The position numbers and the translations under genes are program-made. Below, one piece after another: positions 1,495-25,509 of a stretch of 64,000 nt of DNA. The DNA is from Blastocatellia bacterium (lineage in GTDB: Bacteria; Acidobacteriota; Blastocatellia; UBA7656), in assembly GCA_963765495.1 (NCBI GenBank), contig CAVXWP010000016.1, positions 160,001 to 224,000 on the forward strand, read 5' to 3'. Under the pieces are notes generated by a model. That model did no database searches and was not told the DNA's origin. It saw only the letters and a program-made list of their open reading frames with translations. Each line of letters starts with the position of its first letter. The first letter of the stretch is position 1.

Positions 1495-3555
1495 CTAGCG
1501 ATTCGGATGGCGCGGGAACTTTACAAAGGGCAATCTTATGCCGCGCACGAACACGCGGTCGGCGCGCATCTCAGGCGGAGACTCAAATCCCGTGCTTCCC
1601 ATGGTGGCTATGATGTCGTCCTGATCCACACCGTCGCCGCTCAACCCTATGCCCCCGGCGAGCTTTCCGTTTTTGTAAAGAGGCACGCTGCCCGGAAATA
1701 TCTGGTTTCCGTTTCCGAGATTGAAGAAAGATGTGCAAGGAAAGGCTACCGCGTTGAGCAGAGACCCGACATCCTGCCCGTTGGAATTGAGAAATCTCAG
1801 GATATTGCCGTAATACTCATCCAGCACGAGGTCGAGTTGCAGTCCATCGTGGAAAGGAGAGAAGTCTTCGATAGGCACGGAAAACGGTCCGTGCTCAGTT
1901 TCGTCAATACCGTCCGGGAAGAAAGGCCGGCTGAGGAATCCCCCCGCGCGGTCTGAAAAGGCCACAGTCCCGTCAAGACCAAGCCCGTCTGCGGCAGCCG
2001 CGTCAACATACCTGCCAAGTCCGGCCTGTCGTAGCGTTCGGCCCGCTACGGGGTTGCTGAAGAAGGCGGCTGTGCGCGCCTTTTGCGCCGAAACGTCGAA
2101 ACCGAATATAGGGGCGTCAATCGTGCTGAATATACCCAGTATGGTTCCATCGACATCAACGACGGTCATATTCACCTGTGTAGGGCTATTGAGCGGCTGG
2201 CGAATAGCCGCGCGCGTGATAAAGGCCTGGGCCGCCGCCTGGGTTATCACCTGCAATACGTCGTTGGCCGTAAGCACCGAGCCGTTCTTGAACGGGAAGA
2301 AGCGATTATCCACTCTGCCGGGCGGCACTTTATCAGGGTCTGCGCCGGGCAATGTGATGACTCTGAACCTGGACGGTTGAGCGGGCAGCACGGTTGCCGG
2401 GGCCAGAGGCAACCTGTCGGGATGAGCCGGGTCGGGGGCGTTTGTGCACGGGCCTATCAAAGAGCCGGGCAGATTATCAAACGCCTTGAGCGTAAGCGAG
2501 GCAGGCATCGGCGTGTTGACGTATGGAAACCTGATGCCGTTTACGACTATCTTGTCTCCGGTGATTGCGTCCGGGGCCTCGAAACCGCGCGATGCCGCCA
2601 CCGCTACCAGTTCTTCAACCGGCTGGTCTTTGTCTGTCGGGTCGGGGTCGAGGCTATAGACTCCGTCGCCCTCGATGCCGATTCCGCCGACCTTCAGCCC
2701 GTTCTTGTAAAGCGGTATCCCGCCCGCGTCTGCCGAGAGTCCAAGAGGCGCTCTGGCATTGACATCGCTACAGAGAAACTGCGAAAACTGCACGCCAAAC
2801 AGCGGGCCCCCGGGCTGAAAGTTTACGCCCGGAGGGAAATGCTCCTGTACGATAAAGCTTGCCGTGCGCGTGCTGAATGCGTGTCCGCCGCTGCTTAGAA
2901 ACGATCCCGTGACAGCCTTCGATATGGCAGCCGAGCAGGAAGGAACCTTGACACCCTCAAGCCCGCAATTGGGGAAATCTCCGAAACACCGGGTTCCTAT
3001 GCCTACCACTGTATTTTTGGGAGTGCCGTTCATGGTGAAGTTGGCCAGAATGTTGCCTTCCGCATCAACGACGGCTATCGAAGCTCTCAACCCGCTTGCT
3101 TCGGCCTGCGCCACGGCCTGCGCGATTATGGTCTTGACATCGCTTACGGTAAGGCGGGTGTCGTCGGCCACGCTCACGGCTATATGAGCCGTCACAAAGG
3201 AGCCGTTGGGGTTTGTGACCTTCACATCCACCCCATCGGCGATGTCGGCTTCGGCCACGCTCTTTATTACTATCTTGGTCTCGCCTTTGATCTTAGCATT
3301 GCTAAAGCTGATCGGCCCCGCCGCATTAGTGAGCGTCAGCGCCGCCCCTTTTTGAAAATTCTCTCCCTTGATCGTCAGAGCGCCTTTCCGTGGATTGAAA
3401 GAAGCTTTGTCGGAGAAGATGAGCGGAGTCGGTCCCGACTGCAACCAGGCAAGTGAATGTCCACTCAGGCACACCATACCAATCGCTAGAAAGCAACTCA
3501 GGACTATCAGCGCTCGTCTTCCTGAGCGTTTGCGCTTTACAACCATGTATCTCAT
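1495..3555 (-). CDS. Exported heme-binding protein with two GlcG/HbpS (Haem_degrading/DUF336)-like domains and an N-terminal Ig/IPT-like module
   Basis: Duplicated module: IAVVDAEG..AISKAVT..GGIPLYKNGLKVGGIGIEGDG and MTVVDVDG..SAQKARTA..GSVPLYKNGKLAGGIGLSGDG. Basic plus hydrophobic leader. Start uncertain (3558/3555/3546). Confidence 0.8.
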   Translation of the reverse strand: MRYMVVKRKRSGRRALIVLSCFLAIGMVCLSGHSLAWLQSGPTPLIFSDKASFNPRKGALTIKGENFQKGAALTLTNAAGPISFSNAKIKGETKIVIKSVAEADIADGVDVKVTNPNGSFVTAHIAVSVADDTRLTVSDVKTIIAQAVAQAEASGLRASIAVVDAEGNILANFTMNGTPKNTVVGIGTRCFGDFPNCGLEGVKVPSCSAAISKAVTGSFLSSGGHAFSTRTASFIVQEHFPPGVNFQPGGPLFGVQFSQFLCSDVNARAPLGLSADAGGIPLYKNGLKVGGIGIEGDGVYSLDPDPTDKDQPVEELVAVAASRGFEAPDAITGDKIVVNGIRFPYVNTPMPASLTLKAFDNLPGSLIGPCTNAPDPAHPDRLPLAPATVLPAQPSRFRVITLPGADPDKVPPGRVDNRFFPFKNGSVLTANDVLQVITQAAAQAFITRAAIRQPLNSPTQVNMTVVDVDGTILGIFSTIDAPIFGFDVSAQKARTAAFFSNPVAGRTLRQAGLGRYVDAAAADGLGLDGTVAFSDRAGGFLSRPFFPDGIDETEHGPFSVPIEDFSPFHDGLQLDLVLDEYYGNILRFLNSNGQDVGSLLNAVAFPCTSFFNLGNGNQIFPGSVPLYKNGKLAGGIGLSGDGVDQDDIIATMGSTGFESPPEMRADRVFVRGIRLPFVKFPRHPNR

Positions 3556-4000
3556 CATAACCTCCAAACCCGGTTTGCTTTGGTGGGTGCACTCAAGCCC
3601 CAACACAAAAGCGAGAAAATGCTTAAGGATTTTTAGCGCGGATTTTTGCCATAAGCTGTGTAACGAATCTTGAAGTCAAACGACCGCTTACTGCACCCAC
3701 TCCCTTGTTCGATTGTTCAAACGCGTTGGTTGATCAGCCTTTCTAGCCAAAAGCCTTTCGTGCAATAAGAGCCGAATATTATCTTCCTTAATACCTGCAC
3801 CGCCCAAATCCGGCTGCTTTTGGGCGGGAAGTATAGCTTATGAAAAAAAGCGTTGCAAGCGAAAAGACGAAACGCGTCTCTTTGGCCCTCGTGCGAGGTC
3901 TTTACACAGCCAAATAGACAAAGAATTTTTCTCAAAAATCTTTTCTCAGTGTTTTTGCGCAAAAGTAGCCTGTTTGGGTATTTGCGACGAACTTGCACTC

Positions 4001-4030
4001 TTGACTTTAGCTCTCCTCACATGTTATACC
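4001..4030 (+). promoter_or_regulatory. Sigma70-type promoter candidate for the cytochrome operon
   Basis: TTGACT followed 18 nt later by TATACC, with an extended -10 TG, in the AT-rich divergent intergenic region. Confidence 0.35.
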
Positions 4031-4196: not shown

Positions 4197-6551
4197 ATGA
4201 AACTGAAGCTATTCATCGTTGCACTCTATGGACTGACTATGCTCGCGCTCGCGGCCCTGTCTACGAGCACATTCGCTTATTCGGGACCGGATGAAGCGAT
4301 TCAAAGCGAGGGTGAGCGAGTCGCCGTCAGATTCGACATTACAGGCAGACGCGGGCTGGTCATGTTTGACCACAAGCAACACGAGGCCCTGATAAACCCC
4401 GATCCGATCTTCCCTCACAAGACGCCGACCGGAGTCGCATGCATTGGGTGTCATCACACGGTCAAGGACATCACAGATCCAAAAGATTTTCAAAAATGCA
4501 CAAATTGTCACAAAGACCCCGGCAATCCCATAAACCCCGATGACAAGGAAGGCTTTGACCTGAACTCGATGCAGGCGTTTCACCGCCTCTGCATCAGTTG
4601 TCACAGGGCCTCGGCGGATGAGGATTTCAGAGCCGCAAGCGACAGATTCAAAGCCAAGAACGTGCGATTTGCCAATGTCGAGCGAACCATCAAATTTACA
4701 AAGTGCGGCGAGTGCCACGACCGCGACGCCACCTTTACTCCTGTAGCCGGAGAGGTGCTCGCTCAGCCTTCGCCCGACGATTCGCCCGATTTCGCACTGA
4801 GACTGAATCGCGCTCCGGCCCCGAGCGAAATCTTTAAGACGCCCTCAAATCCGCAGCTTGGATTCTCAGGGCCGTCAAGCATCGACAGACAGGAACAGAC
4901 CTCGGCCGATGCCGTGCAGGTTCCCGACCGCTGGCGCATAGGCTTTCCCGATGACCCGCGCTACAAACGCGGCGCGTGGTATAACCCCTATCGCCAGAAC
5001 ATCCTCAAAGGCGATTACCCGATCTTCAAGCAGCACAATTTCATGGTTCTGACGCTTGAAAGCGAGACCCTCGTCACCGCCAGGCGCATCCCTGTTCCAA
5101 GCAACGTCAGCGCGCAGAGACCCGATTCCGAAGAGTTCTTTGGCCGGGGCGGGCAAATCTTTACCCGGGAAAATTTCGTCGCCTCGATAGAGATTTTCCA
5201 CGGCGACACCTCCTATAAGCCTATTGATTGGAGATTCCGCTTCACGCCAAACTTCAACATCAATCACCTGAACACGCAGGAGAACTCTCTGGTCAACATC
5301 AACCCGGCTTTTGGAGCAAATCGGCTTGACGGCTATGTGGGATTTCAAGAGCTTTTCGGTGAAATGAGGCTCGGAGACACGACCAAACTACTTCCGTTCC
5401 TCAGAGGCCGGGGAAGCCAGAAAGGCGAAAGCCCGTACTTCGACACCACGTTTATCCGAGTGGGTATACAACAGTTCCAGAGCGATTTCCGGGGATTCAT
5501 CTTCAACGATTTCAACCTCGGAGCGCGACTCTTCGGACAGGCGGCAAATAACCACTACAACTTCAACGCGGCCTATTTTTACCTGCTTGAGAAAGACACA
5601 AACAGCGAATTGAACACCCGCGTAAACCTCGGCGAGTTCAGAGACCAGTCGCTGTTTATCGCCAACGTCTACAAGCAGGACACGATCTGGAAAGGCTACC
5701 AGACACAATTCAGCTTTCACTTCAACAACGACCGCCCGAGCAGGCACTTCGACGAAAACGATTTCCTTGTGCGCCCCGCCCTTATCGGAGACGCGGCCCC
5801 GCACGGAATCAAGTCTTACTACCTGGGATTTACGGGCGACGGCCACATAGGAAAGCTCAACATAGATCACGCCTTCTATCAGGTTCTGGGCCACGACACG
5901 CGCAATCCGATTGCCGGGCGCGAGGTTGACATAAACGCTCAGATGGCCGCAGCCGAGCTTTCTATTGATCGAGACTGGCTCAGGTTCAAAGGGTCGCTCT
6001 TCTTCGCTTCGGGCGATAAGAAACCCTTTGACGGCACGGCCCGTGGCTTTGATTCGATTGTGGATTTGCCGGAATTTGCGGGAGGCAAATTCAGCTTCTG
6101 GCAATTCAACCCCATCCCCTTCACAAACACGGCTGTACTTTTGACCCAGCCCGAAAGCCTGCTGCCGAACCTTCGCAGCAGCAAGACCGAAGGACAATCC
6201 AACTTTGTCAACCCCGGCATCTTCATCTACAACGTGGGAATCGAGGCGGAGATGACGCCAAAGCTCCGGGGCATCCTGAACCTGAATTACTCGCATTTTC
6301 ATCACACCGAAACGCTCGAACAACTGGAATTCCAACCGGGCATCCGCCGCGACATAGGGATTGATTACGGCGTTGGGGTACTGTATCGCCCGCTTTTGAA
6401 CGAGAACATCGTCATTGCAGGCGGGTTCTCGTCGCTGATCCCCGGCAAGGGGTTCGAAGACATCTATAGCTCTAACTGTAGCGGACAAAATTGCGGGTTC
6501 GCCACGAAGACCCTGTTTTCGACCTTTGTGAAGGTGAAAGTCATTTACTGA
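4197..6551 (+). CDS. Tetraheme cytochrome c3-like domain fused to an outer-membrane beta-barrel
   Basis: Signal peptide; FDHKQH plus CIGCHH, CTNCH, CISCH, CGECH. Then about 500 aa of amphipathic alternating beta-strands ending in aromatic C-terminal VKVKVIY. Confidence 0.8.
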
Positions 6552-6594
6552 TTTCGACAAGGCGTTGTGTAGTCATTCGCGTTGGGAGATAGAG

Positions 6595-9500
6595 ATGAAC
6601 GTACGTACCAGTAGCGGTCTCAAACTGTCGTTGATCCTGTTGGCAGTCTGCCTTTACACCTTTATCAGTTTCGCCGACACAACCCCCTCTGCGCGGCCTG
6701 CTTCTCCGGCAAAAGAGACCGGCAAGACGAAGGCAACCGATACGAAAGCGACTGAGGCGAAGGCAACTGAGGCGAAGGCAACTGAGGCGAAGGCCGCGGC
6801 GAAGGATTCGGCCAGTAATTCTGCTTCGGCGAAAAAGGATACCGGGAAGGAGTCAAAAGCCCCGGCCTCTGCCGCGCAAAACGCAGGTGGCGCCAAACTC
6901 TGGGGCATGACCAAAGAAGAGGCCGACCGCCGCAGCGCGGGCTGCAATGACTGCCACACCGGTATCGAAGACATGCACAACGGGGCGATAAACCTCGGCT
7001 GCATTGACTGCCACGGCGGCAACGCGGATGTCCGGGCGCAGGGCCTCTCGATGGGGTCAGCCCCCTACAACGAGGCGAAAAAACAGGCGCACGTTCAGCC
7101 GCGCCTCCCCGATCTCTGGAAGACCTCCGCCAATCCCGAACGGTCTTATACAGCCATACTCAGAGAGAGCCAGGAGTATGTTCAGTTCGTCAACCCCGGC
7201 GATCTGCGCGTTGCGCGCCGAAGCTGCGGGGTAGCCGAATGCCACCCCGGCGATGTGCACAACGTCAAGAAGAGCATGATGACTACGGGCAGCATGCTCT
7301 GGGGCGCGGCGCTCTACAACAACGGGTCGTTCCCGTTCAAGGATGCTCAATACGGCGAAAGCTATGACGAGGACGGCAAGCCTCAACGCCTGCAAACGGT
7401 CCCTTCTCCCACGCCCGAAGAGACTCACAAAAAAGGCATTCTCCCCTTTATAGACCCGATGCCCAGATGGGAAGTCTCTCAGATGGGAAACATACTGAGG
7501 ACATTCGAGCGCGGCGGGCGCAAGTCCGCAGAGATAGGCAATCCCCAGCCGGAAGAGCCTCCGGGAAAGCCCACGCAAAACCTTCTGAGCCTCAGAGGGT
7601 TGGGAACCCTGCTCGCCACAGACCCGACCTTTATCGGTCTGCAAAAGACTCGCCTGCTCGACCCGACGCTTAATTTCATGGGGACCAATGACCAGCCGGG
7701 TGACTATCGCTCAAGCGGCTGCACCTCCTGTCACGTCATCTATGCCAATGACCGCGACCCTTACCATTCGGGGCCGTTCGCAAAATACGGCCACACAGGG
7801 TTAAGCGCCAGCGCCGACCCGACCATCCCGAAAAACGAATCGGGGCACCCGATAAAGCACCAGTTTACGCGAGCCATTCCGAGCAGCCAGTGCGTGGTCT
7901 GTCACATGCACCCCGGCACGCTCGTGCTGATGACCTACTACGGCACGATGTGGTGGGATCTTGAGACGGACGGCGAGAAGATGTATCCCAAAGAGCACAA
8001 AGAACTGAGCGCGGAAGAGGAACGAACCATCCTCCAGCGGAACCCGGAAGCGTCGTCGCTCAGGGGTAAATGGGGCGATCCCGAGTTTCTTAGGAACCTC
8101 CGCGAAGAGGTCAATCCCGATCTCAAACACACGCAGTTTGCCGACTTCAACGGTCACGGATGGGTCTATCGAACCACATTCAAAATGGACCGTAAGGGAA
8201 ATTATCTGGATGCCAACGGCGATATCGTCAAGGATGTAACATCGGAAAAACTCAAGAAGGCCGTCGAAGACCCTTATGATGAAAACGCCGATCGCTCAGG
8301 GATTCCCGTTCATCTGAAAGACATTCACCTCGAACGCGGGATGCACTGCATAGACTGTCACTTCCGACGCGACAGCCACGGGAACGGAAATCTCTACAGC
8401 GGGCCTCGCAACGCCATAGAGATTTCATGCGAAGACTGTCACGGCACTATAGACAAACGCGCCGACCCGACATCTCTTGATGCGCGAACATCGGCAGCCG
8501 CGGGCGGCAACCGCATGCTCGAATACCGCAAGGTCTCTCCGCTCGGCGATAACCCGGCCTTAAAGAAAGACAGGTTTTTCAAGAAAGACGGCAAGCTTTT
8601 CCAGCGATCGGCGGTCGAAGCCGACAAGACGTGGGAGGTTAAACAGCTTGTTGACATAATCACGCCGGGCAACCCCGAATACAACGAGAAGGCGGCGCTT
8701 GCCAAGACCGTGCTAAAGGACGGAAAGACCTGGGGCACGGTGCCCGCAGATGATCGCAATCTCGCGCACGCAAACAGCAAGATGACATGTTTTGCGTGTC
8801 ACATGTCGTGGACGCCAAGCTGTTTCGGATGTCACCTGAAGCAGACCGCAAATCAACAGCGCGCGATGCTGCACAACGAAGGCGATGAGGAACTGCGAAA
8901 TTATGTGACCTATAATTTCCAGACCCTCCGCGACGATGTCTTCATGCTTGGGAAAGACGGCACGGTAACAGGCAAACGGTTTGCGCCCATCAGATCGGCA
9001 TGCGCCGTTCTGGTCAGTTCCAGAAACGCCCTTCGCGAATACCTCTACTGGCAGCAGCAGACCGTATCTCAGGAAGGCTACAGCGGGCAGGCGTTCAGTT
9101 CTCACTTCCCGCACACGGTCAGGACCACCGAGACAAAAGGATGCACCGATTGCCATCTGTCTAAGGAAAATGACAACAACGCATACATGGCCATGGTGTT
9201 GATGCAGGGGACGAATTTCTATAACTGGATAGGGCGATACGTCTATGTCGCCACAGGCGAAGGCGGTTATTCGGCCATCGTCGCCACCGAGCGCGAGGAA
9301 CCGCAGGCCGTCATCGGCAGCCATCTGCATAAACTGGCCTTCCCCGAGGAGTACAAGAAACACCAGGAAGACCACGAGGAGCTTCACGAATTTTACGAGC
9401 ATCCGGGCAACGATATAGGCAACTCGCTCAAGCTTTTCGGCAAGGACAAGACCGAAGTGCAAAGCCTTCAGCTTCGCGGCGAATACCTTTATGCCGCGAC

Positions 9501-10944
9501 CGGAGAGGGTGGCTTCCGCATCTATGACGTTGCAAATATCGACCAGAAGGGATTCTCTGAAAGAATGACCACGGCTCCGTTCTCGCCGATGGGACAGAAA
9601 TTCTATATAAAGTCGAAGTACGCGACCGCCATCGCATCGCCGTCAACACTTGCGGTTGACCCGACGGCGACCGTGGGCGAAGTCCTGAAAGAGAAGACGC
9701 GCCGCATCTACCGGCCCGAAAACGACGAAGGAAAGTATCGCGACGACGGGCAGTTGATACCCGCGCTTTACGGCTTCCTCTACGGCACGGACAGGTACGA
9801 GGGGCTTGTGGTCATAGGCAACCCGCTCACCGAAAAGAAAAAAGGACCGGGCGTGGCCACATTGCTCGACGGCGACCCGAACAACAACTTTATCAAGCGC
9901 GCTCTGGCCTTCAATCCTGACGGCCTGCTCAACGGGGCCAACAACATCGTCATCGCGGGTTTCCACGCCTACATAACCTGCGATAAGGGGCTGGTTATCA
10001 TAGACCTTCACGACCCGCTCAAGCCAAAAGTTGTGGGGCAGATCGGAGAGCCGTTTATAAAGAAACCGCGAGCCGTGCAGATACAATTTCGCTACGGTTT
10101 CGTCTGCGACGAGGAAGGCGTAAAGGTCATTGACGTGACCGATCCCGATCACGTTCGTCCGGTCGAAGGCGCGGTCGTGCGGCTCGAAGATGCCCGAAAC
10201 ATCTACCCCGTCAGGACCTATGCTTACGTAGCAGGCGGCAAACAGGGGCTTGTCATTCTCGACATCGAAAACCCGGAAAAGCCGAAACTCGATCAGGTCT
10301 ATAACGCCGACGGGCAGATCAACGATACAAACGATGTGAAGGTGGGCATGACAAACGTGAGCCTGTTTGCTTATCTGGCCGATGGTCACAACGGGTTGCA
10401 GGTAGTTCAACTGATCTCGCCCGAAGATACGCCCGGCCATTACGGGTTCAGCCCCCGCCCGACCCCGCATCTGATCGCGCATCATCACACGCACGAACCG
10501 GCCCTCGCCATAAGCGAAGGGATAGACCGCGACCGCGCCGTGGATGAAAGCGGCAATCAGCTTTCCGTGTTTGGCCGCAGAGGCGCTCGTCCGATGAACC
10601 TCGAAGAACAGCATCGAATGTATATGAAAGACGGGAAGCTCTTTTCCTTCCCCGAAATCAAAGACAGCAACATCAAAAACAACAAAGACATCCGAGACTA
10701 CTTCGGGCCGCCGCCGCTAAACGAGTCGGCCGGTGGCAGCGGGTCGAAACCTGAGGCCCCGAAGGGTACTCAAAAAGAAGAGAAAAAATCGGAAGCCGCT
10801 TCCGGTCACAGTCCGGGACAGGCGCGCCTGGTCGAGCCTGACCAGATCAGGCCAAACGATTCAGCGGAATTGTTCGGGCTTGCGGGTCTGTTTTTGCCGC
10901 TGGCAATAACTCTGTTCCAACAGCGTAGGCGCAACAAAAAGTGA
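6595..10944 (+). CDS. Large exported multiheme cytochrome c (9 CXXCH + 1 CX4CH) with C-terminal LVIVD-repeat beta-propeller and C-terminal membrane anchor
   Basis: CNDCH, CIDCH, CGVAECH, CTSCH, CVVCH, CIDCH, CEDCH, CFACH, CFGCH, CTDCH. Repeats such as [22 protein letters not shown] and [13 protein letters not shown]. Tail [24 protein letters not shown]. Confidence 0.88.
6727..6795 (+). repeat. 15-bp coding tandem repeat (KATEA pentapeptide linker)
   Basis: About four copies of (a)aggcaactgaggcga encoding [10 protein letters not shown]. Confidence 0.85.
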
Positions 10945-11050: not shown

Positions 11051-11608
11051 ATGAGATTGAAGCTGGCTGTTCTTACGATATACGCGCTAGGCGTGATTAC
11101 GCCCGCGGCTTTGATGGCCGGACCCGCTGCCTCCGAGGATCAGGGCAACAGGGACAGCTATCAGAGTAAGAACCCCATTATCATGCTCAACACCAAGGGC
11201 GTGCGCACGCGCGGCCCTGTGCGCTTTGACCACGACGAACACGATTCGCTCATCAATCCCGACCCGAATAATCCTCACCCGGCTAAAGAGGGCGCGGCCT
11301 GCATAGGATGTCATCACACGGAGGACGCGCGCGGCATCGTGCAGTTGTGGAAATGCACTTCGTGCCACAAGACCGAAGGCGGGGGCGACGGGAAATTCAT
11401 AAACACAAAGAACAAGGACTGCGATCAATCGGGCAATCCCAAGAATCGCGAATGCGACGAGGTCTATTTCGAGCGGGCCTTTCACGACAAATGCATAAGC
11501 TGTCATATAGCGTCGAATAAAGAGTTCACCCTGAAGCAACCCGCGCCCGTGACGTGCGGCGGCTGCCACGAGTCTTTAGGAGCGAGCGCGGCCATGAATT
11601 CTAAATAG
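11051..11608 (+). CDS. Periplasmic tetraheme cytochrome c3-like protein
   Basis: Signal peptide; FDHDEH, CIGCHH, CTSCH, CISCH, CGGCH. Paralogous to the N-terminal domain of 4197..6551. Confidence 0.88.
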   Translation: MRLKLAVLTIYALGVITPAALMAGPAASEDQGNRDSYQSKNPIIMLNTKGVRTRGPVRFDHDEHDSLINPDPNNPHPAKEGAACIGCHHTEDARGIVQLWKCTSCHKTEGGGDGKFINTKNKDCDQSGNPKNRECDEVYFERAFHDKCISCHIASNKEFTLKQPAPVTCGGCHESLGASAAMNSK

Positions 11609-11709
11609 CACGAATTCTAAATAGGAAGTTGGACCGGATTTGAGGTGTAATTAGGGGCTGTCCGAATTTTGCTATGACAGGTGGCAGTCATCTGGAGGAT
11701 TACCAGACC

Positions 11710-16324: not shown

Positions 16325-16374
16325 GCTCGTCTGAAAGACGACCGGGCGAAGCAACAAGCCAGAGGATAGCCATC

Positions 16375-19300
16375 ATGGCCAAGAACATATTCATCATCAA
16401 AAGGACGGATAAGGATAGCGGCGTTGACGATGTCGTTATCGAAAGCGAAGGCTTAACCATAGGACGGCTCGTCGGTAACGACCTCGTCCTAAACCACAGG
16501 GCCGTGTCCAGAACCCACGCCGGGATAAAAGAGATCAACGGCGAATTCTGGATATTCAATCTCTCAACCTCTAACGGGACGGTGCTAAACGGCCAACTGG
16601 CTGACAAGACGCCGCTCGCCGACGGGGACGTGCTTCAGATAGGCCCTTATATGCTCGTGATTGAATACGGCAAGAACGCGCTCTCGATAATCGTTCAAAG
16701 AGAGATCGAGGTCAATCCGCTCGAGGCATATGGAGCGGCGCAGTCGGCAGGCGCGGACGAAACCGGAAAGACCATGATGATCCAGATACCGGGTCTTGCG
16801 GGCAAAATTCCGGGCGGCACAAAAAGCATCAGAGGCACAGGGCTTCTCGGCAATGTGCTTCCCTCGATGGATCAGGCGGCGCTCGATGTCTTCTGGGAGA
16901 AGAGAAAAAGAGAGGCAGGCAAGATCGCCGAAGTCACGCCGCTTCATCCGAAGGGGGGCGAACGACTCGGGAGAGCCAGAAACAACTGGCGTCCTACGGT
17001 TGATCTGCGGAGGCTGTGGCGCAAGTCTTACTTCTATCTTGGCGCGGCCGTCGTCGTGTTGCTTTCGATTATCGCGATAATCATCTATGAGAGCGCATAT
17101 TCGCCCGGCTCGCTGGCCGACCCGCACGTGCGCGCGATGGATCAGAGCGCGCTCTTTACGCGAAATATCGCCAGCCGCGAAAACGCCAATTCGTGCTCCA
17201 CGTGCCACGGCGTCACAACAGGTATGCTCGACAACTGCATAACCTGTCATACGACTACGACCACGGGCGCGAGCGGCGCGACGAAGGCCGGGTTTTTGCC
17301 CCGCACCCTGATCGCAGGGCACAATAATCAGAACCTCGTATGCACCGACTGCCACATCGAGCATCAGGGGAGAGATGTTACAGCGGGTCTTGTGAGCTAC
17401 CGCCTCTGCTACAACTGTCACAACGGCGTTTACACGATCAAGAACGCGGGCAAGATCGGGCCTGCCGGTTCTGTGCTCCCCATTCCGCACGGCGGCAAGA
17501 CCGGATACACGGAACTGAGCACCGAGACAAAAGGCGGAAAATACTGGCCGGGGCTTTCCGCCGCGAGATGGGAAAAATCTATCGCCCGGTGGAGGGCGAA
17601 AGACCCCAACATCATCGCCGACGCGAAGAGTCTGGAAAACAGCCCCTCAAATCAGCAGTTTCACAAACTGCACCTCGGCGGCATAGGAATAGAAGGCAAG
17701 CAGAACAACCAGATATGCGCCATATGCCACTTCGATCAAAGCGGCAAAAATCTCGACACACAGACCAATTACGGTTTGCACGAAGCGCCGCGCCTGTCCT
17801 GCGCCAAGTGCCATACGGTCTCATACACGGTCGCGGGGGCAGCAAGTCAGGTCCCGGCAAGTTGCGAGACCTGTCATCAACAGCACGGCGCTGACGAAGG
17901 CATCCTCAACACGGCAAAGATCGTAGCCGACCCCGGCAAAGAACAGGAGTTTCTGGCTTCGCTCAACAAACCCGCGGCGGGACTCGAAAGTGGATTCCTG
18001 CCCTCGGCCGGGGCCATTGGAAGCGCCGATGTGATAAGGCAGAACAGAGATGTGGTCAGCCTTTCAAGCGCCGCTTCCAGTTTCGGCGCGCTTCCCTGGT
18101 ACGGGTGGGTGGCGGTCATCGGCATCATCCCCATCGCGGGTCTCGTCTTTATGTTCACCGACACGGCCCGCCGCAAATCTTATTTGAAGACGACTAAAAT
18201 AGAGGTCAAACCCGAGGATGAGGCGGCACTTGCGCTGACGGGTCTGCTCGACCTCGACAAACTGAAAGAGCAGGGACCGGCCTATCCTCACCCGGTCATA
18301 AACCAAATGACGTGCATAGGCTGTCACGCCTGCGTTGATGCCTGCCCTCACGATGTACTGGCAATCGTCAACGGAAAGTCTACGCCCATCGCGCTCGATC
18401 AGTGTATGGAAGACACCGCCTGTCAGGTCGAGTGCCCTACAAGTCCAAAATCCTGCATAGTAGTAAACACCAAGAAAGTGATTCCGCCGCGCAAGGTCCC
18501 GGCTCGTGACGGGCGGTTGGAGACCAACGTGCCGGGCATATATATGACGGGAGACGTTTCGGGTACGCCGCTTATCAAGAACGCCATAAACGAAGGGCGG
18601 AGGGTGATCGATTCCGTCAAGGAAGACCTTGAAAAGAACGGGCGCGCTCCGGGGGCGGATTATGATGTGGCAATCGTAGGATGCGGTCCGGCGGGATTGT
18701 CTGCGACGGTCCTTGCCAAAATAGAGGGGCTGAGTTATATCGCGGTGGAACAGGATCGTCTGGCCGGAATGATTCAGGAAGTCTATCAGGCAGGCAAGTT
18801 TGTCTTTTACACACCCGCCGATAAAGAAGTGGTCGGCGGCGTCCCGCTCCTCCCAGACCCCGACAAGCCCGAAGGAAATCTGAAAGAGAACATGCTCAAG
18901 GGCTGGTTCGACGCGATGATGCAAAACGGCGTGGTTGTAAATGAAGAGGAAGGATGCCGGGCGGTCAAGAGCGAAAACGGGTACTTCGTTCTTTCGACCG
19001 AAAAGGGCAAGTCGAAACAGAAGGTGGAGTACAAGGCTCGCAAGGTGATTCTCTCCATCGGCAATCGCGGAGCACCGATGAAACTCGGCGTTCCGGGCGA
19101 AGACCTAAAGATAACCGTCACGCCTCCGCCACAGATCGCCAATCACTGCCCGAAATGCGGGATGGCCCGCAAAGGCACCCAGCTTTTCTGCGTTCAGTGC
19201 GGGCAGCAACTCCCTTCAAAGACCCTGCCGCCTTTCGAGGACGACAGAGTGCAATACAAGCTCTCTGACCCGAAAGACTATGTCAACCGCAAGTGCATAG

Positions 19301-19674
19301 TCGTGGGCGCGGGCAATTCGGCCATAGAGGTAGCCGTAGGTCTTACAGGGTTTGAGCGCGACGGAGACAAGATCAATTTCACAAGCGACAACGAAGTCAC
19401 TTTGATCGTCCGCTCGGATTTCAAAGGAGACCTCGCTTTAGGAAACAAGATGAACGTCTATGATTGCATAGACTCGGGCCGCATGAAGGCATATTTCGGA
19501 TGCGGGATCAAAGAGGTGCTGCCCGGCGAGGTAGTCATAATGAACGCTCGCACAAAAGAAGAGAAGGCCCGCATCCCGAACGACTATATCTTCGCCCTGA
19601 TCGGTGCCGAAAAACCCATAAAATTCCTCGAAAGCATGGGCGTAAAGATCGGCGCGGAGGCAAAAAAGGGATGA
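16375..19674 (+). CDS. FHA + TM + heptaheme cytochrome c + TM + ferredoxin + permuted FAD/NAD(P)H thioredoxin-reductase-like oxidoreductase with zinc-ribbon insert
   Basis: IGR..VSRTHA..STSNGT (FHA). 7 CXXCH between two TM helices. CIGCHACVDACP/CMEDTACQVECP. GDVSGTPLIKNA precedes YDVAIVGCGPAG; VVGAGNSA; CPKC..CVQC. Confidence 0.85.
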   Translation: MAKNIFIIKRTDKDSGVDDVVIESEGLTIGRLVGNDLVLNHRAVSRTHAGIKEINGEFWIFNLSTSNGTVLNGQLADKTPLADGDVLQIGPYMLVIEYGKNALSIIVQREIEVNPLEAYGAAQSAGADETGKTMMIQIPGLAGKIPGGTKSIRGTGLLGNVLPSMDQAALDVFWEKRKREAGKIAEVTPLHPKGGERLGRARNNWRPTVDLRRLWRKSYFYLGAAVVVLLSIIAIIIYESAYSPGSLADPHVRAMDQSALFTRNIASRENANSCSTCHGVTTGMLDNCITCHTTTTTGASGATKAGFLPRTLIAGHNNQNLVCTDCHIEHQGRDVTAGLVSYRLCYNCHNGVYTIKNAGKIGPAGSVLPIPHGGKTGYTELSTETKGGKYWPGLSAARWEKSIARWRAKDPNIIADAKSLENSPSNQQFHKLHLGGIGIEGKQNNQICAICHFDQSGKNLDTQTNYGLHEAPRLSCAKCHTVSYTVAGAASQVPASCETCHQQHGADEGILNTAKIVADPGKEQEFLASLNKPAAGLESGFLPSAGAIGSADVIRQNRDVVSLSSAASSFGALPWYGWVAVIGIIPIAGLVFMFTDTARRKSYLKTTKIEVKPEDEAALALTGLLDLDKLKEQGPAYPHPVINQMTCIGCHACVDACPHDVLAIVNGKSTPIALDQCMEDTACQVECPTSPKSCIVVNTKKVIPPRKVPARDGRLETNVPGIYMTGDVSGTPLIKNAINEGRRVIDSVKEDLEKNGRAPGADYDVAIVGCGPAGLSATVLAKIEGLSYIAVEQDRLAGMIQEVYQAGKFVFYTPADKEVVGGVPLLPDPDKPEGNLKENMLKGWFDAMMQNGVVVNEEEGCRAVKSENGYFVLSTEKGKSKQKVEYKARKVILSIGNRGAPMKLGVPGEDLKITVTPPPQIANHCPKCGMARKGTQLFCVQCGQQLPSKTLPPFEDDRVQYKLSDPKDYVNRKCIVVGAGNSAIEVAVGLTGFERDGDKINFTSDNEVTLIVRSDFKGDLALGNKMNVYDCIDSGRMKAYFGCGIKEVLPGEVVIMNARTKEEKARIPNDYIFALIGAEKPIKFLESMGVKIGAEAKKG

Positions 19675-19790: not shown

Positions 19791-19871
19791 CCTCCGAAGT
19801 TCCTTCATCCTTTCACTATATTGCTGTAGTATGTCAGGCAGGTTGAATCTGAGATAAAGGGAGGCAAAGGC

Positions 19872-20642
19872 TTGAAAGTCAGACTTCTGCCGAGCAGCGC
19901 GGGGCGACATTCCCAGGAGCAGTCGCTAACCAGTTTCCTCATAAACGATCTGGTTTCGATTGACGGCGGCAGCATTGGATTTGCCCTGACGCCACCTGAA
20001 ATGGGCAAGGTCCGAGACATCGTGATAACGCATACGCACAGCGATCATCACGCATCTTTGCCTATTTTCATAGCCGAAGCATTCACAATGCTCGACGGAC
20101 CCGTTACGATTTACGGCCTGCCGGAAGTGATCTCGGCGTTGAGGGAGTTTATATTCAACGACAAAATATGGCCGAACTTCGAAAAGATTCCGCTTATGAA
20201 CGGCAAATCTTCTACGATAGAGTTTCGCGTCTTAGAGCCGAGAGAGACGATCGAGATTGCGGGGCTGCGCGTGACGCCAATACCCGTAAATCACCTTGTT
20301 CCGACTATCGGATTGCTGGTCGAGGACGACGGGGCCGCCGTGATCTTCACCTCCGATACTTACGTGACGGACGAGATATGGCAGCGCGGCAGAGAGAGCG
20401 AAGAGCTAAAAGCCGTCTTTGTTGATATTTCATTTCCGAACGAGCTTGGCAAACTTGCTGCCGACTCCAAGCACCTGACCCCTGAGTTGCTTGCCGGAGA
20501 GCTGAAAAAACTGAACCGGGATGCCGAAGTCTTTGCGGTCCATATCAAGCCTACCAACAGGGATCAGGTAATTCACCAGCTTGGCCTGCTCGACAATCCG
20601 CTTGTTTCAGTGGCCGAAATCGGGCGGGTTTATGAGTGGTAA
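19872..20642 (+). CDS. 3',5'-cyclic-nucleotide phosphodiesterase (class II / metallo-beta-lactamase fold)
   Basis: THTHSDHH metal motif, FNDKIWPNF, PVNHLVP, FTSDT, SKHLTP, VHIKP. TTG start after ggagg. Confidence 0.85.
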   Translation: MKVRLLPSSAGRHSQEQSLTSFLINDLVSIDGGSIGFALTPPEMGKVRDIVITHTHSDHHASLPIFIAEAFTMLDGPVTIYGLPEVISALREFIFNDKIWPNFEKIPLMNGKSSTIEFRVLEPRETIEIAGLRVTPIPVNHLVPTIGLLVEDDGAAVIFTSDTYVTDEIWQRGRESEELKAVFVDISFPNELGKLAADSKHLTPELLAGELKKLNRDAEVFAVHIKPTNRDQVIHQLGLLDNPLVSVAEIGRVYEW

Positions 20643-20693
20643 CTGACGGGTGGTAATTGCCCCAGACCGGTCGCCGCAGAATTTGAAGATGTT

Positions 20694-22319
20694 ATGTCTC
20701 TAAAACTATTAATAAGAAACACCGAAACAGGACAGGTAACCGAGAACGTATTGTCTGCCCCCGAAGTGCGGATAGGCCGGTCAGCCGAATATAACGACAT
20801 AGTGCTTGACGACTCTCAGGTCTCGCGCCGACACGCGATGCTACAGCGACTGGGCAGTTCATACATGCTTGTGGACCTAAACAGCGCCAACGGCACCTTC
20901 GTTGACGGTGAGCGGATCAAAGACCGCATCCTCAACGACGGCAATTCGTTTTCAATCAGCAAGTACACGCTCACATACAAGAGCGAAGGAGCGGTTGCCG
21001 TCAAATTCGACAACCAGCGAATCGGCAACACCGTACTGCTGCGCAACCCGGAACAGGTCGCGGCAAGTATAGCGCAACTGGATAAGTCTGTTATCTCTGA
21101 AGCCGCGGTTGATTCCAAGGACTTGCTCGAAGACATAGAAGCGCTCAGGAAAAAAGCGGAAACGCTGTCGCGCCTCTACGAATTGAATCAGATGCTCGGG
21201 TCGGTCTTTTCGCTCGAAGACATATTCAAGAAAGTAAGCGAGATGTTGTTCCGTCTGACGCCGGCCGACCGTTTTCTGGTTCTGTTGAAAGACACGGGCA
21301 CGGGCAAGCTCTCTCCGGTAGCCACGGAATTCCGCATACAGGCGGGCCGGTTGATAGCCGGTGACATATCGGTCTCTCAGACTGTGATGGACCGCGTCTT
21401 AAACGAGCGAATGTCGCTGCTCTCCTTCGATGCGCAGGGCGATGAGAGGTTGAAATCGTCTCAGTCCATCATCATGCAGAATATCCATTCGGTTATGTGC
21501 GCTCCTTTGCTTGGCAAAAACGGCGTGCTGGGTGTCGTCTATGTCGATTGCCTGCAAATCATTCAGACCTTTAAGGAAGACGACCTTGAATTATTGAATG
21601 CGCTCGCGGCTGAGACCGCCATAGCCGTCGACAACGCCATAACACACGAGCAACTGGTCAGAGAAGCCCTGGCTCGCGCTACCTATGGCCGCTTCATGCC
21701 CAAGCACGTGGTTGATGCAATACTGGCCAACCCCGATCAGATAAGCATGGGAGGGTCAAACGCCCTCGTTACCATGCTCTTTTCCGACGTTCGCGGATTC
21801 ACAAGCATGTCTGAGAATCTGCCGCCTGAGACCGTAGTCCAGATGCTTAATGAGTATTTTGGCGATATGGCTCCAATTGTATTCGAGTATCAGGGTTTGC
21901 TCGACAAGTATATCGGAGACGGTTTGATGGCGCTCTTCGGCGTGCCTTATCAAAACGAAAAATCTGCCACAAACGCCGTGGCCGCCGCCGTAACCATGCA
22001 ACGCCAGATGGAAAAGGTAAACAAAGAACTAACGAATAGAGGGCTTGCTGAAATCGCCATCGGGATAGGCATAAACACTGGAACGGTGACGGTCGGCTAT
22101 ATAGGTTCGGAAGAGCGGACCGATTATACCGCGATTGGCGACGCGGTCAATCTGGCTGCGCGATTGGAAAAAGAAGCGGGCCGAGGTCAGATAATAATCA
22201 GTTATTCCACGCTCGAAGCAATCGGAGACGGCTTTCCCGTAAAGCCAAAAGGCGAAGTGCTTGTAAAGGGGAAGCGAGAAGCGGTTAAGATTTATGAGGT
22301 TCTCTGGCAGGAGGCCTGA
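20694..22319 (+). CDS. FHA-GAF-class III adenylate cyclase
   Basis: IGR..VSRRHA..SANGT; SVMCAPL..GVVYVD (GAF). FSDVRGFT, DKYIGDG and YTAIGDAVNLAARLE (Lys/Thr indicate ATP specificity). Confidence 0.92.
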   Translation: MSLKLLIRNTETGQVTENVLSAPEVRIGRSAEYNDIVLDDSQVSRRHAMLQRLGSSYMLVDLNSANGTFVDGERIKDRILNDGNSFSISKYTLTYKSEGAVAVKFDNQRIGNTVLLRNPEQVAASIAQLDKSVISEAAVDSKDLLEDIEALRKKAETLSRLYELNQMLGSVFSLEDIFKKVSEMLFRLTPADRFLVLLKDTGTGKLSPVATEFRIQAGRLIAGDISVSQTVMDRVLNERMSLLSFDAQGDERLKSSQSIIMQNIHSVMCAPLLGKNGVLGVVYVDCLQIIQTFKEDDLELLNALAAETAIAVDNAITHEQLVREALARATYGRFMPKHVVDAILANPDQISMGGSNALVTMLFSDVRGFTSMSENLPPETVVQMLNEYFGDMAPIVFEYQGLLDKYIGDGLMALFGVPYQNEKSATNAVAAAVTMQRQMEKVNKELTNRGLAEIAIGIGINTGTVTVGYIGSEERTDYTAIGDAVNLAARLEKEAGRGQIIISYSTLEAIGDGFPVKPKGEVLVKGKREAVKIYEVLWQEA

Positions 22320-22416: not shown

Positions 22417-24045
22417 TCAAGCGCCGGCCGCGTTTCCCAGACCGAAGAATTTTATTATCCGGGCGAAGATGTCCTTCTGCGCGTGGCCCATGCGACTGGC
22501 CGTGGCTTCGGCATCAAGCCCGTCGCGGGCCGCTTCGTATTCCGTTCGGCGTCGCGCAAGCACATGAGATATATACTCGGCTATCTCGGGGCGCTTGAGC
22601 AGGATGTCGTGAAAGGCTTCTTTGTCCAGCCGGTAACATTCCACGTCTTCGAGCGCCATAACCGTAGCCGACCTCTTTTCCCCGGTCATCAAAGACATCT
22701 CTCCAAAAAAATCTCCGGGGTGCAAAACGGCAAGGCTGCGAGTCTGTCCGCTCTCAATCGAAAGAGTGACCTCCGCCACTCCTTCCGTGATGATGTAGAG
22801 CCAGTGTCCTTCGGCTCCCTGTCTGGTAATCGCCTCGCCCTTTGTGAACGGAGCGGGGACGAGTCGCTCGGCAAGCACCCGGCGCTCTTCATCGCTCAGA
22901 GTATGGAACAGGTCTACACCTGCAAGCGCGGCAAGACGACCCTCGATCTCGCGTTCCTGTTTTCTGCCCCTTCGCTTCTCGGTCTCTTCTGTGACAAAGA
23001 CGCTCTGCGCGGGGATAGAGAGCGGAATCCCGGCGCGTTTGAGCGCGAAATATATCCGCGTGCGAACTATGGAGTCGGTCGGGTCATCCACGGCCAGGTC
23101 GGTCAGCCAGTACCGCGCGGCATAGTAACAGAAACTCTCTTTGAAATCATAAAGTATGCAATGAATCTTAGGCTCGGCGGCGACCCGCTCTATCGGTTCG
23201 GCCTGGAGCGCCTCGTTTACTATCGAGATGACCTGGGTCGGCGGGACGCGAAAGTCCACGTTGAAATAGACCCACTGGCGATGCTGCGTAGCCTGCCCGG
23301 TCCTGCGGCCCAGCACCGTGACCTGCCCTTTCATCAACATGCTGTTTGGGAAAATGATCGTGTCCCAGTTGCGCGTCTCAATCGAAGTGTGCCGCCAGCG
23401 TATCTCTTTTACCTTCCCGACATTTTGATCAATCTTCACCCAGTCGCCGACGTTTATAGTCTTTTCCAGTTGCAGTGCCAGCCCGCCCATGATGTTGCCA
23501 AGCGTATCCTGAAGCGAAAAGGCGATCACAGCCGTCAGCACCGCCGATGTCGTGATTATGTCTGAAAGACTCAATCCCCCGTGCCAGAGCAACCCCATTC
23601 CAACCATGATATAGCCTAAGGCTACAAGCAGGTCGCGGAGTATTCGAGGCGTGTGAACATGGATCAGATTGAGCAGGATATCGAATATGAATATGCTCGC
23701 AAGATTTACGATTGCAATCCCGCCTATCAACAGCCCCGTGTTGAGAGTAAAGTTGCTGGACGATTTTGCTCCACTCGATTCGAACAGGCTCGATGCCGAA
23801 ATCAGCACAAGCGCCAGCAGGAAAAACCAGCTTGCCGCCCGAATGCGAGAGCGCGCGGCAGGCACATATTTCACAAGCAAGATCGCGACTACGGCAAACG
23901 TCGCGGTCACAGGCAATACGTTGTGTTTGGAATAGACGGCGCGCAAATCGTTCCAGAGGCTCGATAGATTCAGCCCTGCGGAGTCTTGCAGAACGGCAAT
24001 CGTAAGAAGGTAAAACGGTTTCTGAAGAGAGACGAAAAAATCCAT
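22417..24045 (-). CDS. MscS-family channel with C-terminal cNMP-binding domain (bCNG-like), extra N-terminal TMs
   Basis: VIAFSLQDTLGNIMGG, VGDWVKI, PNS motifs; GDFFGEMSLMTGEKRSATV. Confidence 0.92.
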   Translation of the reverse strand: MDFFVSLQKPFYLLTIAVLQDSAGLNLSSLWNDLRAVYSKHNVLPVTATFAVVAILLVKYVPAARSRIRAASWFFLLALVLISASSLFESSGAKSSSNFTLNTGLLIGGIAIVNLASIFIFDILLNLIHVHTPRILRDLLVALGYIMVGMGLLWHGGLSLSDIITTSAVLTAVIAFSLQDTLGNIMGGLALQLEKTINVGDWVKIDQNVGKVKEIRWRHTSIETRNWDTIIFPNSMLMKGQVTVLGRRTGQATQHRQWVYFNVDFRVPPTQVISIVNEALQAEPIERVAAEPKIHCILYDFKESFCYYAARYWLTDLAVDDPTDSIVRTRIYFALKRAGIPLSIPAQSVFVTEETEKRRGRKQEREIEGRLAALAGVDLFHTLSDEERRVLAERLVPAPFTKGEAITRQGAEGHWLYIITEGVAEVTLSIESGQTRSLAVLHPGDFFGEMSLMTGEKRSATVMALEDVECYRLDKEAFHDILLKRPEIAEYISHVLARRRTEYEAARDGLDAEATASRMGHAQKDIFARIIKFFGLGNAAGA

Positions 24046-24075
24046 CCGGGTCAGCCCCTTTGCCTGATCGTTTAA

Positions 24076-25509
24076 TTAACCGAGTTTGAAGAATCGCTGA
24101 ATGCGGCGCAACACGGTCTCTCTTTGCATGCGTTTTTCGCTTTCAGGGACACTGTGCGCATATTCGGCGAGACGCGCCTGCCGGTCGGCGATCTTGTGAG
24201 AGAAAGCCTCGACCAGTTTGTCATTCTCGTTGAACAACTGCTCGATGGCCTGCTTTCTTATTTCGAAGATCTCGACTTCTTCCAGGGCGTTGACATCCGC
24301 CGTCCTGGGTTCGCCCGTGAAAAGCGCCATCTCTCCAAAGAAATCGCCCGCTGCAAGCACGGCCACGCGCTGAGATTGACCATTCGAACCCGAGACTTTA
24401 ACCTCGGCCTTGCCTCGATAAATTATAAACATCGAATCGCCTTCATCGCCGCGATGCAGAATCTCTTCGCCGGGAGCATAAATGTATCTGGCCAGCGAAT
24501 GGGTCAGCACAGTCCTCTCTTCATCCGTGAGCGGCTCGAAAATTTCTACCGACCGGATCACCTTATCATAGTCGGTCTCGTCGCGCTTCACCTCTACCTT
24601 CTGCCTCTCAAACAGGACGTGCCGCACGGGGAAGGGGATATGCAGATCGTTGCGGCTGAAGAGATACCATATTCGCTCTCTGATTTGCGCATCCATATTC
24701 GGGGTCCACATATAATCCTTGACCCAGTAGAGGACTTCATAGGTTACGCTCGATTCCGAAAACTCGTGGATACGCACAACGGGGATTTTTTCAGGCGAAA
24801 CCCTCGGCATAGTGCGGACGGTTTCGCGCACAAGCGGGATCACCTTTTGCGGGGGGGTCGCATAAGGAGCCGGGAACCGCAGCACGCGCCGGTTGAGGCC
24901 GTGCAGCGGGTATATTTCAAGCGGCTCGCGCGCGATCTTGCTGTTTGGGAATATGATGACGCTGTTGTTGTTTGTGCGAATGGCGGTCGTGCGCCATGTT
25001 ACCGATTCCACCTTGCCGAGCATATCGCCCATTCGAATCGCGTCACCGATGTAATAAGGCTGCTCGACGTGCAACGACAACCCGGCAAAGAAATTTCCCA
25101 GCGTGTCCTGTAATGCGAGACCGATGATAACCGTGACGACAGCCGATGTTGCGAGCACTCCGCTCAGGTCTTTCTTAAAGACAAAGCTATAGATGACAAC
25201 AAAAAGCGCCGAATATCCGATTATCGAAATCACAAGGCGAAGCAGTGCGGGCGCTTCGCGTCCCTTTCGCTTCTGAAAGATTATGTCAAACAGCACATAG
25301 CTTACGGCTCGGACTACTGTCACGCCGATGCTTATGACCAGCACCGTTTGAAAGTACACATAGCCCTGGATATCCATCAAGCCGTGGGCAAAGAGTCTGA
25401 GGATGATATAGATCAGGCCCAGCAGCAGGCTGACGGTAGCCGTCACTGTCAGCCTTTTCAGCGCCGAATTAGAGTCTTCCATTGCCTGATTGCTCGTCAT
25501 CTCATTCAC
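24076..25509 (-). CDS. Second MscS-family channel with C-terminal cNMP-binding domain (bCNG-like)
   Basis: IGLALQDTLGNFFAG, IGDAIR, PNSKI; GDFFGEMALFTGEPRTADV. Start abuts or overlaps the glk stop. Confidence 0.92.
   Translation of the reverse strand: MNEMTSNQAMEDSNSALKRLTVTATVSLLLGLIYIILRLFAHGLMDIQGYVYFQTVLVISIGVTVVRAVSYVLFDIIFQKRKGREAPALLRLVISIIGYSALFVVIYSFVFKKDLSGVLATSAVVTVIIGLALQDTLGNFFAGLSLHVEQPYYIGDAIRMGDMLGKVESVTWRTTAIRTNNNSVIIFPNSKIAREPLEIYPLHGLNRRVLRFPAPYATPPQKVIPLVRETVRTMPRVSPEKIPVVRIHEFSESSVTYEVLYWVKDYMWTPNMDAQIRERIWYLFSRNDLHIPFPVRHVLFERQKVEVKRDETDYDKVIRSVEIFEPLTDEERTVLTHSLARYIYAPGEEILHRGDEGDSMFIIYRGKAEVKVSGSNGQSQRVAVLAAGDFFGEMALFTGEPRTADVNALEEVEIFEIRKQAIEQLFNENDKLVEAFSHKIADRQARLAEYAHSVPESEKRMQRETVLRRIQRFFKLG

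Follow-up and report, generated by a model that had tools for sequence, protein, structure and literature searches.

What does a run of genes encoding 41 haem-binding motifs do in a Blastocatellia genome, which way would electrons move through its products, and does a second messenger control them? The run lies in a 64,000-nucleotide stretch of Blastocatellia bacterium DNA (contig CAVXWP010000016.1, forward-strand positions 160,001 to 224,000; the whole stretch is called the window) and consists of nine co-directional genes, A to I, at 4197-22319 on the forward strand, with intergenic gaps of 20-197 bases. An earlier note, made from the sequence alone, had proposed a new system: a trans-envelope multihaem conduit gated by cyclic AMP (cAMP) and phosphothreonine. 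The nine genes, two genes for MscS channels with cyclic nucleotide-binding (cNMP) domains and a divergent double HbpS-like gene are present with the domains it had named, and its count of 41 CXXCH motifs was confirmed (4 in A, 9 in B, 4 in C, 8 in D, 9 in E and 7 in G). A 42nd match, at C647 of G, is part of a ferredoxin motif and was not counted as haem; shuffled versions of the same six proteins contained on average 0.14 and at most 2 such motifs (300 runs), vs. 41 in the real proteins. We place about as much weight for as against the reading that proteins F and G form an inner-membrane complex carrying electrons from NADPH to the periplasm without quinone, as an exporter modulated by cAMP. 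A host in Blastocatellia also agrees with the names of close homologues. Domain calls for cNMP, Fe-S, FHA, flavoprotein, phosphodiesterase, cyclase, MscS and HbpS-like domains are from Pfam, and residues are numbered from the starts at 4197 (A), 6595 (B), 13886 (F) and 16375 (G).

Protein F (13886..16324, forward strand) joins two cNMP domains (PF00027 twice) to a polyferredoxin with four [4Fe-4S] clusters (PF13247 above cut-off) and a membrane domain; its structure model (pLDDT 92.6) has five membrane helices. Conservation was scored in 68 sequences, namely F and those 67 of the 150 listed representatives that are 690-960 residues long. The sixteen Fe-S cysteines are kept in 68/68 homologues (one position in 67/68), and His616, His630, His788 and His802 in 67-68 of the 68. 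The four His belong to a WX3HX13H motif that occurs twice, as W612-H616-H630 and W784-H788-H802, on helices 3 and 5 (both complete motifs are present in 41/68 homologues), and a TGLFG segment corresponds to the (S/T)GXXG motif with Thr replacing Ser. We read the membrane domain as a di-haem cytochrome b, with haem predicted. The membrane domain of F itself had no Pfam match, PF01794 included; a split homologue of this domain matched PF01794 at E 9e-6, with a score of 26.2 against a cut-off of 28, and aligned to the F profile at 99.6% probability. A fold search with the whole of F returned matches filled by the cNMP and Fe-S domains, and was uninformative on the membrane domain.

Protein G (16375..19674, forward strand) was assigned an FHA domain, a helix, a heptahaem domain, a second helix, and a ferredoxin joined to an FAD/NADPH flavoprotein with a zinc ribbon insert. 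The earlier note had listed this protein under inner membrane and cytoplasm; it is not simply cytoplasmic, as the FHA domain and the ferredoxin-flavoprotein lie inside and the heptahaem outside, between the two helices. The closest solved relatives of the flavoprotein are YpdA/Bdr-like, making it of the YpdA/TrxR-like type, and its GAGNSA sequence (GxGxxA) and Arg1013 are found in 65 of 65 domains. In dinucleotide-binding folds, GxGxxA with such an Arg indicates NADPH, and NADPH use is predicted on these motifs. G was rejected as a true YpdA (121 bits vs. a cut-off of 340) and as a thioredoxin reductase (43 vs. 343 bits). The flavoprotein appears circularly permuted relative to the Sphingobium form; G has Asp at the usual Cys position of the second ferredoxin cluster (52/75), and the zinc ribbon is present in 29/69 homologues. 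A second full-length G, 46% identical and without F alongside, is encoded elsewhere in the host genome (L013:13314-19957; G000:C1 ~858-865 kb), divergent from npdG, cofD, cofC and cofE (NADPH-dependent F420 reductase and F420 biosynthesis; above NCBIfam cut-offs).

Natural fusions and a passing complex model join F and G in one predicted chain. In Sphingobium and Thermoanaerobaculia-type loci, the flavoprotein, both cNMP domains and the Fe-S domain form a single polypeptide, followed by the membrane domain and an FHA-decahaem protein, and one metagenomic protein (P0264, a single case) fuses the heptahaem to the di-haem domain. The complex of the 13886 and 16375 products that the earlier note had suggested, modelled with F residues 325-812 and G residues 206-715, scored 0.63, vs. 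0.00 for the best of 3 controls; the mark used for such scores was passed by 116/157 solved pairs and 2/215 mismatched pairs, rates that are approximate for the alignments used here. The model runs share at least 73% of contacts, with partner pLDDT of at least 61. The first helix of G packs on helix 5 of F, and His278, the ligand of the first haem of G, lies in the interface. The modelled contact supports binding, without demonstrating it. The claim of an electron chain from cytoplasmic NADPH across the inner membrane is thus supported by motifs, topology, conservation, fusions and the modelled contact.

In the route that we propose, which has predicted cofactors, a presumed outward direction and no quinone step, electrons would pass from NADPH to FAD, to the ferredoxin of G and to the four [4Fe-4S] clusters of F (about six Fe-S clusters in all), then through two b haems across the membrane to the heptahaem of G. 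From there they may reach D, E, C and the haems of A, and probably finish at B, which would be either periplasmic or associated with the barrel; this order of carriers, like the final acceptor, is conjectural. Binding of cAMP to the first cNMP domain of F would be the switch, and docking of phosphothreonine on the FHA domain of G a second input. The membrane potential drives electrons outward and is spent in doing so; such flow would therefore be a reductive service, like that of a ferric reductase or MsrQ, rather than respiration, and would therefore need a built-in switch. A regulated reductive service would suit the host, which has three COX1 genes, better than respiration.

The inner pair is far more constant than its partners. 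G was found in 24/24 and F in 23/24 genomes of the host family, and F in 18/301 genomes of the phylum, of which 15 are within the class. A scan of GTDB with patterns that under-sample the split form gave at least 601 matches, of which at least 296 were confirmed and 80 kept; the kept loci among the matches listed come from Pyrinomonadaceae, Bryobacterales, Thermoanaerobaculia, Sorangium, Nannocystaceae, Kofleriaceae and others. The module is thus widespread in Blastocatellia, and also occurs in myxobacteria and cultured Sphingobium. A downstream flank of 6 kb was available for 51 loci; a multihaem gene follows F in 48 of them, and a flavoprotein is encoded at 43. Among the 41 loci with 7 kb on both sides of F (the wider loci), the barrel and B were each found in 7 and hbp in 8. 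In two genomes (G015, G010) F and G are paired with other cytochromes; in another (G034) the outer set is present, and F and G were not found. Within the host family, B lies near F on one contig in 11/24 genomes. These patterns indicate that F and G are the constant part and that the outer set is exchangeable, although hbp, barrel and B recur together even in Sphingobium, at 37-44% identity. One genome carries two tandem F-G modules, one split and one fused, flanking a single barrel-LVIVD set (L016-L017, G013:C8).

The same domain layout allows a different junction. Quinone-reactive subunits, too, combine a polyferredoxin with a five-helix di-haem cytochrome b, and the motif set was so read by He et al. 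2017 (PMC5566968), who proposed for it the role that the di-haem domain would have here: trading electrons with the quinone pool. Respiration would then be linked to NADPH or to donors in the periplasm or outside the cell, and electrons might flow inward. We regard this as unlikely. The Fe-S domain of F resembles the DmsB, NrfC and ArrB subunits, and matching architectures are found in iron oxidisers, both in favour of this reading; so is the lack of a flavoprotein in 5/41 wider loci, which also counts against the exporter. On the other side, most loci encode an NADPH-type flavoprotein, either fused or next to F, all four His are retained as a complete path across the membrane, and a NapC/NirT-type heptahaem is encoded separately in the host genome, alongside paralogues of D and E.

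Whether an NADPH-fed complex of F and G would respond to cAMP can be judged first from its binding pockets. The first cNMP domain of F (domain A) has G110, E111, R120, A122 and T123 in 120/120 close homologues, and its cassette, FGE...R-x-A-T, the only one of the two to do so, aligns with the phosphate-binding cassettes of PKA and PKG. In distant homologues, the G, E and R of this pocket are present in 68, 57 and 62 of 68, and Gly and Arg persist to ~20% identity. In the second domain, Trp replaces the phosphate-binding Arg in 120/120 close homologues; both members of the tandem are therefore present as had been stated, but the phosphate-binding Arg is kept in the first only. A motif search found two retained pockets in 116/120 split-type proteins. 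In the FHA domain of G, the phosphothreonine-binding residues R31, S45, H48 and N67 are present in 66, 66, 60 and 61 of 73 homologues. The redox subunits thus carry the regulatory domains that the earlier note had named, with intact cNMP (domain A) and phosphothreonine pockets.

The enzymes that would make and remove the signal stand at the end of the run. H (19872..20642, forward strand) is a class II (metallo-beta-lactamase) cyclic-nucleotide phosphodiesterase (PF02112 above cut-off, THTHSDH motif; best PDB match yeast PDE1), and I (20694..22319, forward strand) is an FHA-GAF-class III cyclase that retains its catalytic residues; its Lys/Thr pair is of the adenine type, with Lys at the residue that sets base specificity, and we take it to specify adenine. 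A phosphodiesterase gene lies at most 11 kb downstream of G in 18/24 host-family genomes, accompanied by a cyclase in 16; of the remaining genomes, three are cut by contig ends and three are unlinked. The linkage is strong only inside the host family; outside it, the phosphodiesterase was on the contig of F in 0/13 genomes, though in G030 and G034 both enzymes flank the outer set. A cyclase or phosphodiesterase was found in only 6/41 wider loci, two of which repeat the gene order of the window; the remaining four (L070, L075, L114, L124) have cyclases that differ in architecture. Cyclases thus stand beside F in 4/39 loci, compared to ~0.7 expected from the gene density of the host (four cyclases, two phosphodiesterases), and because these loci include non-independent kin, the recurrence is a lead. 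The cluster yielded no kinase gene, and the FHA domain, conserved in most homologues, is absent from the G of the Polyangia versions examined, and is therefore not universal. The missing linkage outside the family, the sparse cyclases and phosphodiesterases at the wider loci, the lack of a kinase and the loss of FHA all weigh against a gated exporter.

An alternative is an oxidoreductase with no such regulation. Its cNMP and FHA domains would have a structural role or another ligand, and common descent within one family would account for the nearby cyclase, phosphodiesterase and MscS genes. It would explain the absent linkage outside the family and the loss of the second-pocket Arg, and phosphodiesterases and cyclases are common in the class independently of F. 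The long persistence of Gly and Arg in the first pocket, the two pockets retained by the split-type proteins and the different cyclases beside F (with the reservation about kinship) argue the other way, and we give this alternative little credence. In G034 (L133:960-15200), the outer module, phosphodiesterase and cyclase are accompanied, in place of F and G, by an NDH-2-like flavoprotein fused to a cNMP domain, a second possible cNMP-gated NAD(P)H input judging by its sequence. In Sphingobium herbicidovorans plasmid pMSHV, a metallophosphoesterase gene (L052:25239-26087) directly follows the FHA-decahaem gene; we assume from its motifs that the product is CpdA-like, and it could replace the class II phosphodiesterase.

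Signalling might also run in the opposite sense, with a low-flux chain that uses its FHA and cNMP domains to inform kinase and cAMP circuits of how reduced or oxidised the periplasm is. The Polyangia gene before F (L066:6733-9864; similar in L064-L121) encodes a degenerate Ser/Thr kinase-like domain, a helix, a pentahaem domain and a C-terminal beta-rich part; such a kinase-like pentahaem protein, FHA domains on both G and the cyclase, and a kinase or PP2C gene near a few loci (L037, L094, L139) are what a sensor would lead one to expect. We consider it distinctly improbable: cNMP and FHA domains are receivers, 41 haems are a large investment for sensing, and no redox cofactor motif was found in cyclase I in domain and motif calls. 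The earlier note had offered as an alternative that the wire sets the cAMP level; nothing in the cyclase points to such a role. The host genome has 33 open reading frames with Hanks motifs. A PP2C phosphatase gene lies in the window at 43876-45333, ~18 kb from the cluster, and PP2C/SpoIIE genes were also seen near the L094, L139 and L039 clusters.

If F and G export electrons, a further issue is how far these would travel. A (4197..6551, forward strand) has a signal peptide, a class III tetrahaem domain and an outer-membrane barrel. As the earlier note had stated, the product is a barrel in the model: residues 230-784 form 18 strands (pLDDT 82.6). Foldseek gave AlgE as the top match (E 1.2e-16), with AlgE and Occ channels best; the structural match by VIA has Z 25.1 and a root-mean-square deviation of 3.1 over 367 aligned residues. 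MtrB was absent among the listed fold matches, which does not exclude a likeness to MtrB. The Atlas neighbours of the barrel are mostly unnamed, one cluster being 21% alginate-export family. R245, R376, R421, R432, R444, R482, R526, R596, R660, K663 and R731 are invariant in 19/19 sequences, several of them in mid-strand; by analogy they resemble the Arg/Lys of anion-selective channels, and could equally bind haem propionates. The tetrahaem, which many homologues lack, is N-terminal and therefore probably periplasmic.

B (6595..10944, forward strand) is an exported LVIVD-propeller cytochrome with 9 CXXCH and 1 CX4CH, the latter invariant in 14/14 aligned sequences. It has ~84 residues per CXXCH, vs. 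30-39 in the other cytochromes of the run, a spacing that looks more enzyme-like, yet its conserved His would suffice for bis-His haems. A variable hydrophobic/basic C-terminal tail (anchor) was recognised by eye in 7/14 homologues, and B is a candidate terminal component. No clear solved relative was found (best E 0.003, one haem pair of an eight-haem nitrite reductase), its Atlas neighbours are unnamed multihaems, and it was rejected as ExtM (partial match, 84 bits vs. a cut-off of 800). Between B and F lie C (11051..11608, forward strand), an exported class III tetrahaem and paralogue of the haem domain of A (37% identity); D (11674..12693, forward strand), an exported octahaem c7/c3-like carrier by domain and motif count; and E (12714..13724, forward strand), a nonahaem lipoprotein with lipobox Cys27. 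Paralogues of D and E are divergent from a heptahaem NapC/NirT-family protein elsewhere in the genome (L154:9595-14110, G000:C3), in a neighbourhood with pyruvate:ferredoxin oxidoreductase, hemN and apparent cytochrome bd genes; this may be a counterpart that quinol feeds when oxygen is low.

On these components one could build an envelope-spanning conduit, in which NADPH from the pentose-phosphate pathway would feed a surface LVIVD decahaem held by the 18-stranded barrel, switched by cAMP and phosphothreonine and bypassing quinone. If true, aerobic soil bacteria would own a NOX-like, second-messenger-gated device reducing metals, humics or oxygen outside the cell; we think it unlikely. As judged from the model and fold matches, the barrel is AlgE/Occ-like rather than MtrB-like, and a cell-surface haem and a link to the cell surface are hypothetical. 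The barrel and B are each found in only 7/41 loci, and the periplasmic end is therefore not fixed. Among five F-carrying genomes, the barrel profile had no match and the B profile one distant match, in searches that had no positive control. F and G often occur without the barrel and LVIVD genes, which counts against the surface extension, and 'trans-envelope' is at most a possible description.

The remaining genes frame the run. A truncated globin (810..1325, forward strand; PF01152 E 1e-14), outside the range covered by the earlier note and probably exported given its N-terminal hydrophobic segment, precedes hbp (1495..3606, reverse strand), an exported protein of the outer module with two GlcG/HbpS-like domains (PF03928, two stretches); the globin association is loose, a globin gene also lying ~9.5 kb from the barrel gene in G003. 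For hbp, a GlcG-like match (6bws, E 3e-7) was obtained and haem binding is predicted; in Thermoanaerobaculia-type loci and Sphingobium it adjoins the barrel gene (42% identical). Beyond the cyclase, the two MscS channels with C-terminal cNMP domains (22417..25509, reverse strand) are the last genes of an opposite-strand glucokinase/pentose-phosphate run, comprising glk, opcA, zwf, gnd, pgl, ROK, gnd, HAD, tal-pgi and tkt (25502..40320, reverse strand; Pfam). One MscS-cNMP gene adjoins the cyclase in 9 host-family loci, but in only 1/41 wider loci. The pentose-phosphate run stands beside the cluster in 10/14 testable host-family genomes and is rearranged in L092, L124 and L134; this recurring adjacency fits an NADPH consumer, with the run as the likely NADPH source. 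In relatives, ResB/CcsA (system II) cytochrome c maturation genes adjoin the cluster (L028:8295-11398, L024:9541-11277, L084, L087, L096). Scans for promoters (9 found vs. 9.8 expected, at chance level) and terminators (36 vs. 24.6 ± 5.4, near chance) support no operon claim.

Among known systems, MtrCAB and the Geobacter conduits likewise encode an outer-membrane barrel with periplasmic multihaems and a multihaem lipoprotein. The comparison with MtrB/Pcc-type conduits ended there. No MtrB/PioB porin (PF11854) was found in the host genome (97.9% complete) or in A, a search in which no control genome passed the cut-off either; no MtrA/DmsE or MtrC/OmcA decahaem scored above cut-off (best 28 vs. 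192 and 34 vs. 209 bits); and no NapC/NirT quinol dehydrogenase or CymA-type gene is in the cluster, PF03264 matching only on contigs C3 and C8. Other Acidobacteriota cytochromes are treated in PMC7399161, PMC8100337 and a peat preprint.

Closer likeness is found to clusters in print, and the claim of a new system is unsupported because the inner module matches PCC4/ptd-type clusters, by motif and architecture rather than by sequence alignment. PCC4 has a five-helix inner-membrane protein whose helices 3 and 5 each bear WX3HX13H and whose helix 4 bears (S/T)GXXG, a PF13247 Fe-S gene directly upstream, multihaem cytochromes and an outer-membrane barrel, and inward electron flow to quinone was proposed for it (PMC5566968). 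F carries the same di-haem domain motifs as these PCC3/PCC4 clusters, and the porin-less Gallionella trios of Supplementary Table 6 in that paper (9 haems in 544-556 residues, a membrane protein of 308-310 and a redox protein of 796-805 residues) match in size the split form found here in Sphingobium. The haem set here is 4/9-10/4/8/9/7, vs. 4/5/10 in PCC4; as the cluster has no five-haem protein, we treat it as a variant and not as PCC4 itself. Compared to PCC4, the Fe-S and membrane domains are fused, and an LVIVD cytochrome, an HbpS-like protein, a cyclase and a phosphodiesterase are added.

The ptdABCDEFG genes, of unknown function (Elbon, Stewart, Glass 2024; bioRxiv 10.1101/2023.11.21.568154), encode a porin, tetra- and decahaem cytochromes, an FAD/NAD(P) oxidoreductase (PtdC), a cNMP and [4Fe-4S] protein (PtdE) and a ferric-reductase-like membrane protein (PtdF). 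By description, F corresponds to PtdE plus PtdF, and G to a multihaem joined to a PtdC-like domain; the window cluster is without the PtdA-type pentahaem, whereas one is present in Polyangia loci, where the kinase-like pentahaem protein resembles PtdA as described. The accessible part of the ptd account gives no gating or NADPH-export model. In the Ferrigenium straubiae NHC cluster (bioRxiv 10.64898/2026.01.22.701106), a protein with a cytosolic FHA domain, one helix and a periplasmic nonahaem is encoded next to five-helix and [4Fe-4S] proteins; the cluster was reported as expressed in all conditions tested, and quinone reduction by NHC was proposed. The authors of that 2026 preprint saw no redox motif in the membrane protein, whereas the membrane domain here has four near-invariant His. 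For iron oxidisers, PMC9900912 lists a cluster of FHA proteins with ten haems (count 27) and another of cNMP-MscS proteins.

Such clusters have thus been in print three times without a function, mostly read as quinone-linked iron-oxidation candidates, and in our literature searches, whose coverage ended short of subscription journals, neither gating by cNMP nor export of NADPH electrons had been put forward for them. New here is a testable model of an NADPH-fed exporter whose redox chain itself bears a cyclic-nucleotide pocket; if it is true, bacteria spend NADPH outside the cytoplasm under signal control, and PCC4/ptd-type clusters are not to be counted as markers of metal respiration. The proposed exporter finds a functional parallel in the ferric reductase superfamily (NOX, FRE, long bacterial forms and MsrQ-like proteins; PMC3591440, PMC8238504), in which cytosolic NADPH, FAD and two b haems sustain outward flow. 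The proteins here differ from NOX and FRE in having no FNR-type FAD/NADPH domains (PF08022, PF08030), the G flavoprotein being YpdA/TrxR-like, and from ferric reductases in having about six Fe-S clusters, an output into c-type multihaems and an F that itself lacks a PF01794 match. They share with the superfamily four His, placed on helices 3 and 5, that would ligate two b haems, and carry a regulatory domain on the redox chain itself, as NOX5 does with its EF hands (PMC3591440, PMC8238504).

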